This document shows, piece by piece, positions 21,362-25,625 of a DNA stretch of 64,000 nt. The DNA is taken from NCBI RefSeq assembly GCF_030013205.1, contig NZ_CP122648.1; one strand, given 5' to 3'. A model generated the notes under the pieces. The model had not been told where the DNA came from. It worked only from the letters and a program-made list of their open reading frames with translations, and searched no databases. Each line of letters starts with the position of its first letter. Position 1 is the stretch's first letter. The stretch is from Escherichia coli. Lineage in GTDB: Bacteria > Pseudomonadota > Gammaproteobacteria > Enterobacterales > Enterobacteriaceae. The translations under genes were made by a program, and so were the position numbers.

Positions 21362-23401
21362 TCATCCCAGGAACCGTTGAGCACCAATTAGTTGCGCGAA
21401 GTAATCGGCACCAGCGTTCCGAACAATTTCCAACTTAACGTTCTGATCATTGTTTCCTGCTGCAGGGACAATCCCACGATTCATAGCCAGCGCCCGGATC
21501 ACATCTTCAACACTTACAGCTTTAGCGGCAGCACCATTTTCATGGTTAATAATGCCCTGAATTAGCTTTTTCATGACCTCAAAATTAGAACCATCGATTT
21601 TCTCCTTAACACCTAATCCGGTGTACTGAGAGAGATAGCTTTTATAGGACGATGTGTTATTTCCATCAGATGAAGGGGCATAAATATCAATAATCTGATC
21701 AATCGTATTTTTGCCGCGTTTCAGGTATAGCATTACCTGCCGATCTAAGGCGGCAATGCCTTCCAGCATCGTCGGGAAGCTGGCAAAACGGGCATTTGGC
21801 CCCGATTCCAGGGTAGCCCCTTTTTGTCCTGCGAAATTAAGATTTCCGGGATTGTTATTCCTGATCCCTCTGGATAAATATGCAGATCTGTTTACTTGAT
21901 TTGAAAATCCCTGCAATCCTCCAGGCCAGACCTTACCCGGATTGTTTTTTTGCCACTCCTGCACTTCGTTAAAATAATCAAAGTTGAAACGCCCCTCCAG
22001 CCCTTTCATTTCCTCACTGGTGGTAGGTGTGTCATTTGTAGGAATAGCCAATCCAGCTACTGTTCCGGCTGTAGCCCCAAGAAGACTTCCACCAACAACA
22101 CGGGCGGCAACTCCGGTCGTTGTGGCTGCCACAGCACCAACTCTCGATGGTCCAGCAAGTACTGCGGCCCCAAAAAGCCAGGGATGTTCAACCGCAAAAC
22201 CAACAAACCCGCTAAGTGCCTTAACAACCTTTGCAACGTTTTCGGCAAAATTGTTCAGGTCGTTATTAAAATCCGGGCCATTTACGTACTTACCAAGTTT
22301 ATCCAGCCCCGTTTCTACATCCGTCAGAATCCTTTTAAAGTTCTCACCATTCATGAAATTCAGGGCAGCATTCGTGGCACCATCAGACATTCTGATTAAA
22401 GCGTCTTCATTCCCCGCCATTGCTCCCTGAAATCCGCTGGTAAGCCGATCCCAGTTTTTTTCCAGGTTACTGGTAATATTCTGATATTTACTTGTATGTG
22501 CAGAGGTCAGTAACGAATCATTCTGCGCTGCACGTAACGAAAACTCTTTGTTGAGTTCAGGTATTTTGTCCTGATATTTGACTAACTGGTTAGTAAGACC
22601 AAAATTTACCCATCCAAGCCCCATTCCTCTGAAATTGCTCTGGGTAAGACCAGTTCCCTGATATTCCTTTGCCAGCGCTGCAACCTTTTTCAGGAATACA
22701 GGCAGGTTTTCAGTCGCGTTTTTATCAGGATTTAGCCCCAGATTAAGCAGGCCGACGCGGGCAGGATGCGATATATCATTTTGTGCTGCTGCCAGTGTAT
22801 TGAGCACATTGCCAACACCGGAAAAATAAGGCGAATAAGTGCTTTCTGCCGCCTTTAACTCTCCTGGCGTTGCCACCAGCTCATCTGCATTTTTCTGTTT
22901 CTCTACAACACTACGGGACATCATGCCAAAGCCAAACGGTCCGGCAACGCCCATAACCGAGAGTTTTGTTCCCCACGATACGGTTGTTTTAAACAGGTTG
23001 TTTAATCTTGAAGTGGTCGTCTGTAGTGTAGAATTGATCTGCTTGTAAGTTTTCAGCGTCTGTTGGGCATTTTTCCCCAGCCCGCTGAGATACTTATCAA
23101 ACATCGTTTCGCCGCGACCTTTATAGTTGCTTACGAACGAATCTGCTGTTTTTCCGCTGCCGACAAAGCGCCCTTTTTCGTCCCTCACTCTCCCGGATAC
23201 ATCCGGTCCTGTCCGACCAGATTTTGCCGCCACGGGTAAGCCTGCCCCCACGCTGCGCCCACTTTGCCCCGGTATTTTCATCGGCGTTCCGGCAGGGCCG
23301 ATCATCAGCCCGTTGCGATACTTTTCAAAAATTGCCTCAAGCCGTTTGAGGTGTTCTTCATTAACGTCCAGCGTCAGAACTGGCATCTGATTACCTGACA
23401 T
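21362..23401 (-). CDS. tape-measure-like virion protein with C-terminal globular domain (RNNNPGN motif)
   Basis: 679 aa with a helical N-terminal two thirds and a Gly/Ala-rich hydrophobic segment (HPWLFGAAVLAGPSRVGAVAATTTGVAARVVGG...). Directly preceded by a two-frame chaperone-like gene, and its start overlaps the stop of the -1 frame (TAATG). Confidence 0.6.
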   Translation of the reverse strand: MSGNQMPVLTLDVNEEHLKRLEAIFEKYRNGLMIGPAGTPMKIPGQSGRSVGAGLPVAAKSGRTGPDVSGRVRDEKGRFVGSGKTADSFVSNYKGRGETMFDKYLSGLGKNAQQTLKTYKQINSTLQTTTSRLNNLFKTTVSWGTKLSVMGVAGPFGFGMMSRSVVEKQKNADELVATPGELKAAESTYSPYFSGVGNVLNTLAAAQNDISHPARVGLLNLGLNPDKNATENLPVFLKKVAALAKEYQGTGLTQSNFRGMGLGWVNFGLTNQLVKYQDKIPELNKEFSLRAAQNDSLLTSAHTSKYQNITSNLEKNWDRLTSGFQGAMAGNEDALIRMSDGATNAALNFMNGENFKRILTDVETGLDKLGKYVNGPDFNNDLNNFAENVAKVVKALSGFVGFAVEHPWLFGAAVLAGPSRVGAVAATTTGVAARVVGGSLLGATAGTVAGLAIPTNDTPTTSEEMKGLEGRFNFDYFNEVQEWQKNNPGKVWPGGLQGFSNQVNRSAYLSRGIRNNNPGNLNFAGQKGATLESGPNARFASFPTMLEGIAALDRQVMLYLKRGKNTIDQIIDIYAPSSDGNNTSSYKSYLSQYTGLGVKEKIDGSNFEVMKKLIQGIINHENGAAAKAVSVEDVIRALAMNRGIVPAAGNNDQNVKLEIVRNAGADYFAQLIGAQRFLG

Positions 23402-24083
23402 TACAATACTCCTGCGGGATTTTTGAATTTGAGCAGCTCACGAAACTGAGCTGCTGTTTTTACATTCAGACCGGAATCTGCACAGATGTCTCTGAATCCG
23501 GCTCCGGCTGAGTAGTCGAGGATGTCGCTGATGACGTGTTCGCCGTCGCGCCAGAACTGACGGCAGGCTTCAATGTCGGCAATGAATCGATCCATTCCGT
23601 AAGACTCAAGGACGAGCATTGAGTGCTCCATATTCCATTCACCGCATCCATAGTCCCCTTCGTCTGCTCCGGGGAATTTATCGACGAGACGCATGTAAAA
23701 AAAACAAGTTCACCCGCCACTTCGTCCAAATCAACGATTTCACGCTCCAGCGCCATATCGAGAGGGATTGTGTCGTAGCCTTTGCCCTCCACTGGATAAA
23801 CAAGGTTTGCCAGGCGAATAATTTCGTTTATGAGCGTATTACGTATGCCTTTCTCCCCATCCCATAAACCGGAGTCACGGGAGATTTTCTCCAGCATAAG
23901 GCAGGCAACGCGCGGACCCGCAACAACACCAAGACCTTCAGAAAAAATGGCAGAAAAGGTTTTACTCAGGATGAAGAAATGCTCTTTAAACACCTCTTTG
24001 CTGATCGGCGTGGCATGGAGCCAGCCATTACCCTTTTCAGTGCGCACAGGGATAATCAGATTTAAGTTTTTAGCAATTTTCAT
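23401..24083 (-). CDS. tail-assembly-chaperone-like gene with two overlapping frames (0-frame 23466..24083, 205 aa; -1 frame continues to 23401, predicted fusion 227 aa)
   Basis: ORFs 23466..24083 and 23401..23694 overlap. They can be joined by a -1 slip on gtt ttt ttt aca. The 0-frame tail after the slip site is S/T-rich and unprotein-like, whereas the -1 frame looks globular. Confidence 0.55.
23697..23704 (-). other. T8 slippery run (candidate programmed -1 frameshift site)
   Basis: Minus-strand sequence is G TTT TTT TTA C. The 0-frame reads V127 F128 F129 T130. After a -1 slip the next codons are TAC ATG CGT, in frame with ORF 23401..23694. Confidence 0.5.
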
Positions 24084-24763
24084 GATTCACTCACTCTGTT
24101 TTTTTCCAGTTGATCCAGCCGCCCGGATATTTCTTCCAGTTTTTCCAGAGCTGGCTTGCAGGCCGCATCAATAACTTCACGGACCATTCCGGCGAGCTGT
24201 TCTTCTTCTGTCGGCGTTGTTACTTCCACACCTGATGGTTTCCCGCCCTTATCCCATACGCCCAACGGTACGAGCGCAACGTGATCGATAAGAAATGGCG
24301 TACCCTCAATGAAAAAATTGTCCTCGCCCATTACATCAGGAACTTCTGCCCCACCGGACGCACCACAAAACACAACCGACGGGCTGGTGGATACCTCCCC
24401 CCGTGCTTTCTGGATGTAATCGATGATTTCCTGCCCGTAAATCCGGCATACACCCCACACCTCGTCACCGCGAATATACGGCAACATGACGGTGCCAATA
24501 ATGCGCGACCGTTCGCCAACGTCTTCAATGGTTTTGCCTTCGGGATGGTCGATAATGACGGGTACTCCGGCGCAACGTTCCAGGAACTGCGGATTGAGAT
24601 AAGTTTGCGGTGAACGCCAGACAAATTCTTTTTCTTCGGCGCGGTAGGCCATGCCAGTCCCTGTAATACGCAGGTTAACCAGCCACATGTTGGAGAACTG
24701 ATAAGGCGACGGTAGCTGACCGTCCCGAATCTGCTTTGCCGCCTCAATTTCTGTTAAAAGCAT
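24080..24763 (-). CDS. prohead protease/scaffold-like protein (S78 / DUF2213-like pattern)
   Basis: 227 aa. VPVIIDHPEG...IIGTV and GEVSTSPSVVF follow the His / Ser spacing I remember for HK97-type prohead proteases. C-terminal coiled coil LEKLEEISGRLDQLEKN. ATGA overlap with the next gene. Confidence 0.45.
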   Translation of the reverse strand: MLLTEIEAAKQIRDGQLPSPYQFSNMWLVNLRITGTGMAYRAEEKEFVWRSPQTYLNPQFLERCAGVPVIIDHPEGKTIEDVGERSRIIGTVMLPYIRGDEVWGVCRIYGQEIIDYIQKARGEVSTSPSVVFCGASGGAEVPDVMGEDNFFIEGTPFLIDHVALVPLGVWDKGGKPSGVEVTTPTEEEQLAGMVREVIDAACKPALEKLEEISGRLDQLEKNRVSES

Positions 24764-25406: not shown

Positions 25407-25445
25407 TTTTACCACCTCTCTTTTTTCACCAAAAAATCACGACCA

Positions 25446-25625
25446 TCAGGCCGGACGTTCTACGGGATAAAGCGCCCGCTGCATTAAACGCCGGGCGACC
25501 TCATGAATGCTCGGAGCAATCCCCAGCGGAGAATTGCGGCGTTCCTCGTCCTGGATGCGCTGTAATGCTTCAATCTGATCACGAGCGAGTAAAACAGGTT
25601 TCACGCTGGCTTTTCTCATAGTCAT
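25446..25625 (-). CDS. hypothetical small protein (57-59 aa)
   Basis: AGGAG SD lies ahead of ATG 25625/25619 (MTMRKASVKPVLLARDQIEALQRIQ...). First ORF after the tandem terminators. Confidence 0.5.
   Translation of the reverse strand: MTMRKASVKPVLLARDQIEALQRIQDEERRNSPLGIAPSIHEVARRLMQRALYPVERPA

Follow-up and report, generated by a model that had tools for sequence, protein, structure and literature searches.

A chromosomal island of the porcine Escherichia coli strain ETEC4079, situated between yejO and tRNA-Pro(GGG), carries a compact operon of putative virion-assembly genes. The window analysed here is the whole stretch of 64,000 nucleotides that contains this island (contig NZ_CP122648.1 of assembly GCF_030013205.1), and all coordinates refer to it. 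Two tandem intrinsic terminators, consisting of a hairpin and a T-run, stand directly after perC (about 25745-25817, minus strand). The operon runs on the minus strand and begins, behind a promoter-like site and a ribosome-binding site, with a gene of 57 amino acids (aa) (25446-25619; a 59-aa form starts at 25625). A 192-aa gene (24828-25406) and a 227-aa gene of the DUF2213 family (24080-24763) come next, followed by a 205-aa two-frame chaperone gene (23466-24083), whose -1 frame extension, the ‘T’-like part, occupies 23401-23696, with a 97-aa open reading frame (ORF) called at 23401-23694. A 679-aa tape measure gene (21362-23401) and a 175-aa helix-turn-helix gene (20783-21310) close the operon. 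The genes are tightly coupled: the DUF2213 stop overlaps the chaperone start in an ATGA, and the stop of the -1 ORF overlaps the tape-measure start in a TAATG. A first-pass annotation, made by a model from the letters of the stretch, had described tandem terminators followed by a minus-strand block with ORFs of 57-59, 192 and 227 aa, a two-frame gene and a 679-aa ORF, and both the ORF list and the sequence place every one of these features on the minus strand at the coordinates given above. Each block ORF has close homologues, and the ratio of non-synonymous to synonymous substitution rates (dN/dS) is 0.12-0.17 against a second satellite allele, that of strain STEC719; the ORFs are therefore not a product of chance. 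The RefSeq annotation contains no pseudogenes in the block. The gene identities, namely a satellite-borne tail chaperone, a tape measure and a split head protease/scaffold from Rac-SA53-type phages, are well supported by sequence comparison.

Phage homology supports the assignment of the 679-aa product as a tape-measure homologue. Over aa 1-501 the protein is 89% identical to the tape measure of phage pPE4; it matches phrog_7694 at 1.9e-290 and, on its C-terminal part, phrog_2276, ‘tape measure’. In the phage the homologous gene is flanked by rac52 (chaperone) and by rac54-rac56, which include the baseplate hub. The protein contains a hydrophobic Gly/Ala-rich core of 57 residues (aa 398-454; 22040-22210, minus strand), the only Kyte-Doolittle window of at least 1.3 in its entire length, embedded in a block (aa 396-460) that is 37% glycine plus alanine. 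The motif GIRNNNPGNL, at residues 512-521, lies in a Pae87-like muramidase domain (about aa 508-638; 21488-21880, minus strand), which matches the Pae87-family endolysin/muramidase of PDB entry 7q47 at 1.3e-10 and the N-terminus of phage Gp29 in entry 9vvp at 1.6e-12. The tape-measure character suspected in the first-pass annotation from the helical N-terminal part, the core and the position after a two-frame gene is thus borne out. Alleles of pPE4, Rac-SA53 and the STEC719 prophage have an SLT lytic transglycosylase domain in place of the muramidase. In every satellite and phage tape measure compared, the first 40 aa and the tail motif at the C-terminus are conserved. A shorter, distinct, Gly/Pro-rich linker at aa 41-78 characterizes three satellite alleles (the ETEC4079 window, STEC719 and Salmonella) relative to three phage alleles. 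We also entertained the idea that the last 36-45 aa derive from DUF2213; it was rejected, the alignment being that of a diverged but genuine tape-measure C-terminal motif. At 679 aa the satellite protein falls within the phage range of 657-697 aa and a change in tail length is therefore not expected, which makes the re-sizing of helper tails that had been envisaged for this protein unlikely. Between the ETEC4079 window satellite and the STEC719 satellite the tape-measure dN/dS is 0.17.

The gene directly upstream had been called chaperone-like on account of its two frames, and both synteny and a predicted frameshift signal agree with that view. Its 205-aa product is 82% identical to Rac-SA53 rac52, the gene directly 5′ of the tape measure in that phage, and no match was found to the other 205-aa phage gene, rac44. 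The position immediately upstream of a tape measure is shared by the satellite gene and its homologues in Rac-SA53 and pPE4. Codons V127-F128-F129 read GTT TTT TTT and form a run of eight T residues (23697-23704, minus strand) that contains the slippery heptamer T_TTT_TTT (23697-23703). A -1 slip at this run would open 98 codons that end exactly on the tape-measure ATG, giving a predicted frameshift product of 129 + 98 = 227 aa. The slip would occur at codon 128 of 205, which leaves 76 codons covered by both frames. An alignment of this region from two satellites, three phages and one decayed prophage shows no variation in the T8 run or around it. In each of the six sequences the -1 frame has no stop before it reaches the start of the tape measure, and the 65 nt that separate the zero-frame stop from that start hardly vary, although without a frameshift they would not code for protein. 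Single-sequence and profile searches of the chaperone against Pfam and PDB returned nothing meaningful. Its dN/dS between the ETEC4079 window satellite and the STEC719 satellite is 0.17. Taken together, synteny and the predicted signal support the assignment of a tail assembly chaperone of the gpG/gpGT type.

The two proteins encoded upstream point to the head rather than the tail. The 227-aa protein matches Pfam DUF2213 (PF09979) with 27.4 bits against a cut-off of 22, as well as PHROG 530, ‘head maturation protease’, at 1e-5, and is 54% identical to aa 1-226 of a 430-aa phage DUF2213 protein. Its AlphaFold2 model (predicted local distance difference test score, pLDDT, 86; alignment of 25 sequences) consists of a beta-rich domain followed by a long helix at residues 186-226. 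The top 24 Foldseek matches of this model in PDB are all herpesvirus assemblins or T4 gp21, although they are weak (E 5e-3 or weaker, template modelling score about 0.35). Residues H73, S125 and S127 are invariant, and H161 nearly so, across the DUF2213 family. The model is compatible with a capsid-maturation-protease-like fold; a prohead-protease/scaffold-like His/Ser pattern and a C-terminal coiled coil had been noticed in the translation. The short DUF2213 form is kept down to 55% identity in five other genera. As for the 192-aa protein, its C-terminal 130 aa are 64% identical to aa 295-423 of Rac-SA53 rac43, the 430-aa DUF2213 protein, and correspond to positions 409-544 of phrog_6216, while its first 60 aa are satellite-specific. 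Hence the two ends of the phage DUF2213 protein are represented by two separate satellite genes in swapped order. Pa193 gp24, with which PF09979 was founded, has been described as a putative scaffold that contacts the inside of the capsid at the five-fold vertices through residues 286-326 (PMC11456595). Given this capsid binding and the possible protease-like fold, the phage 430-aa protein can be read as a protease-scaffold fusion. By analogy, the 192-aa protein might be an alternative scaffold that presents a capsid-facing C-terminal part behind a new N-terminus. This protein had been described as acidic and helical; its acidity is marginal, with 27 D+E against 25 K+R. No meaningful PDB sequence match was obtained for the 192-aa, 227-aa or 57-aa proteins. 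Since Pfam finds no NUDIX domain in the 192-aa protein, its RefSeq name ‘NUDIX hydrolase’ is unsupported. Distant phage and metagenome homologues do carry DUF2213 fused to a genuine NUDIX hydrolase domain (PF00293), and the name has probably spread to the E. coli proteins from such fusions.

Searches of phage genomes lead to a single type, whose representatives are Escherichia phage Rac-SA53 and a record named ‘Actinobacillus’ phage vB_Apl-pPE4 (pPE4 above), both lambdoid temperate phages. The late region of these phages begins with terS, terL, portal, a head-morphogenesis gene, the 430-aa DUF2213 gene, a 205-aa gene and the major head protein. It continues with connector-sized genes, a 445-aa sheath-sized gene, a 147-aa tube-sized gene and the 205-aa chaperone gene. 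A 657-693-aa ‘lytic transglycosylase’, three small genes including the baseplate hub (phrog_196), the remaining baseplate and the fibres follow. With 445-aa and 147-aa genes at the sheath and tube positions, labels that come from size and position, the tails are read as contractile. The 445-aa gene, the putative sheath, occurs in 84 of 5426 complete E. coli genomes; among the 13 that contain the whole block, at least 9 have it. About 40 kb separates satellite and Rac-type prophage in several strains, the satellite being next to the Rac attachment region, an arrangement that gene maps confirm for STEC719. This co-occurrence is suggestive and does not amount to a formal test, because the strains are not phylogenetically independent. 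STEC719, UMNF18 and ETEC1716 are among the natural strains that contain both satellite and Rac-type prophage. The satellite most likely parasitizes temperate lambdoid myophages of the Rac-SA53/vB_Apl-pPE4 type. Genes for heat-labile enterotoxin IIa (LT-IIa) are located just upstream of the terminase genes in Rac-SA53, at 467-4629 of its locus, and in the STEC719 prophage, at 1299-2439 of its locus; the Rac-SA53 region also encodes a pertussis-like toxin.

The element that houses the operon is about 13.4 kb long. An imperfect copy of the tRNA-Pro 3′ end, identified by local alignment as the distal attachment (att) repeat (19475-19494, unstranded), pairs with 32852-32872 with 20 of 21 matches and one gap; the latter is the proximal att core and belongs to tRNA-Pro(GGG), the integration target (32852-32930, minus strand). 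The backbone comprises a P4-type integrase with an arm-binding domain, an AlpA-family regulator, an Icd-like remnant, DUF4222, an AAA_25 RepA-type helicase, ProQ/FinO and PerC. P4-type integrase, AlpA, DUF4222 and PerC are usual backbone genes of enterobacterial islands. The ORF list, the RefSeq annotation and family searches reveal no capsid, portal, sheath, tube, fibre or lysis genes in the island. The satellite context that the first-pass annotation had deduced holds in this respect also, with no tube gene and no baseplate hub among the island genes. A size of about 10-15 kb, an integrase, an AlpA-type regulator, a replicase of its own, att flanks and the lack of structural or lysis modules make up the layout of a phage-inducible chromosomal island (PICI), and all of these are found here. 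No ORF or family match for a major capsid protein, portal or head-tail connectors exists in the island, as a capsid-forming PICI (cf-PICI) would need. Likewise, psu, delta, sid and alpha primase of P4-like satellites gave no Pfam or PHROG match in the island ORFs tested, and its P4-like features are limited to the integrase and the Icd-like gene. By gene make-up, then, the element is a PICI-like phage satellite. An Rfam search of the island returned tRNA only. A 500-aa, GTG-started ORF at 29190-30692 (minus strand) has no Pfam or PADLOC match; the RefSeq annotation covers no more than its 3′ part, called an Icd-like pseudogene, and at this position sibling satellites have short Icd-like genes and antA/antB antirepressor genes.

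Near the distal end of the island lies a cos-like sequence (19709-19790, unstranded) with 87% identity to the annotated cos-site of the Stx2e phage phiP27, which is placed between the HNH and terS genes of that phage. The island sequence is also 87% identical to the termini of several Burkholderia phages. Its core 15-mer recurs in the satellites of strains cq9 and ETEC1738 and is absent from the second ETEC4079 satellite described below, from Rac-SA53 and from pPE4. As phiP27 has an unrelated head and terminase, the packaging helper may differ from the helper that the structural genes suggest.

Is the block a peculiarity of one strain? A survey of other islands, which the first-pass annotation had proposed, located it at tRNA-Pro, at tRNA-Gly, between smrA and abgR, and in Salmonella. 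The junction between DUF2213 and the chaperone is present in 14 of 5426 complete E. coli genomes, at no fewer than these three integration sites and alongside three replicases, namely an AAA_25 helicase, a D5-type primase and DUF927. The suspicion that the block is a random leftover of a siphophage tail operon consequently finds no support, as the junction recurs across sites, replicases and genera. ETEC4079 itself harbours a second satellite at tRNA-Gly (NZ_CP122643.1, 957-971 kb) with identical 57-aa, 192-aa, DUF2213 and chaperone genes and a 99% identical tape measure, and with a D5-type primase in place of the RepA-type helicase. Homology between the two copies ends at about 20122 of the window, and the distal 630 nt, including the cos-like site, differ. 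Sibling loci in other genera were found by exact-protein context look-ups; a genome-collection scan with the 227-aa protein gave one locus in a metagenome-assembled genome, which was unrelated. Salmonella enterica satellites have the same gene order and a tape measure that is 84% identical. Satellites of Enterobacter hormaechei and E. kobei encode a full-length tape measure and a baseplate hub elsewhere in the element, the E. hormaechei tape measure being 37% identical to that of ETEC4079. A 342-aa gene of the Enterobacter satellite was considered as a major capsid homologue because of its size; this idea was rejected, and the gene is the baseplate hub.

The position after DUF2213 behaves as a slot whose content varies between satellites. 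In E. coli OkiPb01676 and two other strains it contains the hub and a small upstream neighbour, with 73-78% identity to their phage counterparts; both genes also fill this slot in Citrobacter sp. S-77, where PHROG family was the only basis of assignment. Two small-terminase-like genes take their place in Citrobacter braakii, Pantoea and Klebsiella aerogenes, and one C. braakii TerS-like gene shares both ends with the Rac-type TerS. The hub is missing from the ETEC4079 window island and present in four sibling satellite loci. In the satellites compared, the cargo always consists of inner-tail or packaging parts and never of sheath, tube, fibre or capsid. Some slots have been emptied. In the cq9 and ETEC1738 satellites all that is left of the tape-measure gene is a deletion scar, its final 138 nt, behind a slightly shortened DUF2213, and a second ETEC4090 satellite has a 664-aa DUF2213-tape-measure fusion ORF (5545-7539 of its locus). 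The chaperone-tape-measure pair is, by its distribution among satellite sequences, an accessory module and not part of the core. A decayed Rac-type prophage in strain W13-16 has a different appearance, with a pseudogenized DUF2213 fused to a sheath-sized gene fragment within a full phage context. In C. braakii (locus 9001-18678) and Pantoea agglomerans, Rac-type portal, long DUF2213 and major head genes appear 0.5-1.4 kb after the satellite late operon, with no large terminase gene called in between; these loci could be satellite-prophage recombinants or a tandem arrangement with a deletion.

The remaining genes of the operon are more enigmatic. A 57-58-aa gene occupies the same place in 12 sibling satellite loci from several genera. 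Its product has no match in Pfam, PDB or PADLOC, and its strand-helix-helix pattern suggests that it may be a DNA-binding regulator of the ribbon-helix-helix type. In the 64-nt gap between the 192-aa and DUF2213 genes there is a 10-bp GC-rich hairpin (24788-24811, minus strand), flagged as resembling a terminator but without a proper T-run, which may serve as an internal attenuator or RNA-processing site. The 175-aa gene keeps its position in 7 sibling satellite loci. Its product gives a weak Pfam match to HTH_17, a match to the N-terminus of a PHROG TerS at 5e-7 and a weak, sub-threshold NCBIfam DNA-binding match. Homology to TerS was rejected, as the resemblance to phage TerS is limited to a weak helix-turn-helix match of 56 aa; the protein may be TerS-like, Rpp-like or an excisionase.

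What could such an operon do for a satellite? On balance, we think it probable that the block is a late virion-remodelling operon of a PICI-like satellite, which would build chimeric tails and remodel capsids with a helper of the Rac-SA53/pPE4 type. Helper replication would lead to expression of the operon. The two head proteins would then steer or adjust the assembly of helper procapsids to suit a genome about one quarter the size of that of the helper, as SaPI CpmB does, while the chaperone and tape measure would join the helper tail pathway and yield tails with a satellite-encoded core, as in the PLE satellites of Vibrio cholerae. The likely benefit would be independence from the helper tape measure, which could bring escape from exclusion or defence aimed at that protein, or else a different wall-digesting domain for DNA delivery; it would probably not be an altered tail length. 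A further proposal, possible though doubtful at present, is that the late operon has an exchangeable slot, loaded with whichever helper part is needed (tape measure plus chaperone, hub or small terminase), and that a satellite tail core delivers DNA into cells that exclude the helper. Helper lysogens whose superinfection exclusion is directed against the helper tape measure or its lysin domain would be an example of such cells.

Several observations weigh against the virion-remodelling operon. Every functional step ascribed to the ETEC4079 element is inferred, by analogy and comparative genomics. The AlphaFold2 model of the chaperone (pLDDT 37) comes from a shallow alignment whose homologues are all at least 88% identical, and is unusable for a fold search. 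A satellite-specific swap to the muramidase domain, which we considered, was rejected, as a subset of Rac-type prophages has this domain too, at about 95% DNA identity. The ttcA (Rac) site of ETEC4079 is empty, and the strain is not among the 79 listed of the 84 genomes with the sheath-sized gene. The head and terminase of phiP27 are unrelated to those of the Rac type, and together with a phiP27-like cos in the island this is a poor fit with a single Rac-type helper. Moreover, the satellite and phage alleles are so close and mosaic that selection acting in phages, ahead of transfer, may account for the low dN/dS. The existence of deletion derivatives shows that the chaperone-tape-measure pair is dispensable for persistence, and of the 33 E. 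coli genomes with the satellite family only 14 have it. These last points are also what one would expect of passenger DNA, a pair captured by recombination with a co-replicating helper, without gain and short-lived before being deleted again: identity to the phage alleles is 82-89%, the alleles appear mosaic, and deletion scars and an in-frame fusion derivative are known. We nevertheless regard this explanation as unlikely. The junctions are clean and translationally coupled, and the ORFs and the frameshift signal are intact. One and the same junction accompanies three backbone/replicase variants at three or more att sites and extends to Salmonella. The 37% identical tape measure of Enterobacter, with a hub, stands at another position, which implies independent acquisition or long retention. 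Random capture should also have brought in sheath, tube, fibre and capsid genes, whereas the cargo is restricted to tail-core and packaging genes, and the truly decayed prophage of W13-16 differs in having pseudogenes in a full phage context.

The tape measure and chaperone could instead act as dominant-negative decoys that spoil helper tails and thereby protect the host population. Blocking of tail assembly is known for satellites and prophages, as with Tai, Tab and the Rta protein of PLE11 (PMC11364771, PMC10884400, PMC12987554), and the distinct aa 41-78 linker shared by the three satellite alleles would be compatible with such a role. Yet the spread of a satellite depends on helper tails, all regions conserved in phage tape measures are retained, the first 40 aa and the tail motif at the C-terminus among them, and a chaperone with a predicted frameshift signal is co-encoded. 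The tail-blocking proteins described so far are small and bear no relation to tape measures. PADLOC gave one negligible match and called no defence system in the block. In the light of these points a decoy function seems distinctly unlikely. Descent from an ordinary Rac-type prophage through deletions is highly improbable. Deletions can indeed join DUF2213 to tail genes, as strain W13-16 illustrates, but the island has an integrase, AlpA and a replicase of its own between att repeats 13.4 kb apart, and RefSeq annotates no pseudogene in the block. Its DUF2213 is a diverged short form (54%) and not a truncation, with the C-terminal part in a partner gene in swapped order, and conservation of this form to 55% identity in the five other genera does not suit a remnant. 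We therefore retain the virion-remodelling operon as our working model.

The first-pass annotation regarded a satellite tape measure with chaperone as undescribed. To our knowledge, satellites were believed before 2025 to use helper tails unchanged. That premise of novelty no longer holds, because chimeric tails of PLE satellites (PMC12987554) and tape measures of EPIP satellites (PMC12822802) have since been published. In the literature searched we found no description of tape-measure/chaperone satellites in an enterobacterial lineage that does not form its own capsids. The work on PLEs left open why the tail core is replaced and how widespread this is. The present locus and its relatives suggest that the same strategy arose in an unrelated satellite lineage, found in E. 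coli, Salmonella, Citrobacter and Enterobacter. If true, the exchangeable slot would extend chimeric-tail assembly from the Vibrio PLEs to E. coli and Salmonella and supply a selective rationale for it. These two hosts offer a genetically tractable system in which to follow the sorting of satellite tape measures into particles and the advantage gained. A satellite that interferes with or rides on Rac-type phages could also affect the spread of toxin genes, given the LT-IIa genes in Rac-SA53. On a practical level, the RefSeq names ‘NUDIX hydrolase’ and ‘TolA’ for genes of the block are misleading.

Our model is best judged against systems that are already known. PICIs of Gram-negative bacteria such as EcCICFT073 are characterized by an integrase, AlpA, a primase-replicase and redirection of packaging by Rpp. 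The ETEC4079 element resembles them in its integrase, AlpA, replicase, late-operon layout, length of about 13 kb, tRNA site, small helix-turn-helix protein ending the late operon and cos-like site, and differs from them by adding homologues of helper head-protease/scaffold, chaperone and tape measure. In the staphylococcal pathogenicity islands (SaPIs), CpmA and CpmB redirect capsid size, and CpmB shares the capsid-binding C-terminus of the 80alpha scaffold. The 192-aa protein is similar in that it keeps the C-terminal 130 aa of the helper scaffold (64%) behind a new N-terminus, in a satellite about one quarter the size of the helper genome. However, the protein families are different, and the E. 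coli satellite has a separate short protease-like gene. Tail chaperones of the lambda gpG/gpGT type, the subject of Xu et al. 2004, reportedly share a conserved -1 frameshift upstream of the tape measure. The two-frame gene of the satellite follows this scheme, being directly 5′ of the tape measure and having a slippery heptamer and a -1 extension that ends at the tape-measure start; it departs from it in an overlap of 76 codons versus a few codons, and in having no detectable sequence similarity to characterized chaperones.

Closer in concept are satellites that bring tail genes of their own. EPIP satellites of Mycolicibacterium encode a tape measure (December 2025 bioRxiv preprint, PMC12822802), and predicted tmp genes are also present in other Vibrio satellites and some cf-PICIs (PMC12987554, Extended Data Fig. 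10). A satellite-encoded tape measure is the common element, but EPIPs and cf-PICIs carry capsid or connector genes, which the ETEC4079 element lacks, and hosts and helpers are unrelated. The nearest parallel is that of the PLE satellites of V. cholerae, whose helper is ICP1. According to a Nature 2026 paper, available as a preprint since January 2025, PLE11, PLE1 and PLE4 encode a tape measure, a tail assembly chaperone and in some cases the baseplate hub BhuB, which is missing from some PLEs (PMC12987554). Their tail proteins replace those of ICP1 in PLE particles, resulting in chimeric tails that are required for efficient transfer, and in PLE11 they confer escape from its own tape-measure-targeting inhibitor Rta (PMC12987554). 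The E. coli element belongs to an unrelated, PICI-like lineage of Enterobacteriaceae with a putative helper that is temperate and lambdoid. Its alleles are 82-89% identical to those of the helper, compared with about 20% in PLE; its chaperone has a canonical -1 frameshift signal and its tape measure a cell-wall hydrolase domain; and no Rta-like inhibitor was identified in it. Many members of the family lack the tail genes, whose slot is exchangeable. For PLE the proteins are demonstrated components of virions; for the E. coli element such a role is predicted. The likeness is nonetheless extensive: in both cases a satellite without tube, sheath or capsid genes encodes a tape measure and a chaperone, the hub occurs in sibling satellites, and tail genes stand beside genes for capsid remodelling, putative ones in the E. 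coli element. In both, the borrowed set is confined to inner-tail components, and if the parallel holds, sheath, tube, baseplate wedges and fibres would be provided by a contractile-tailed helper.

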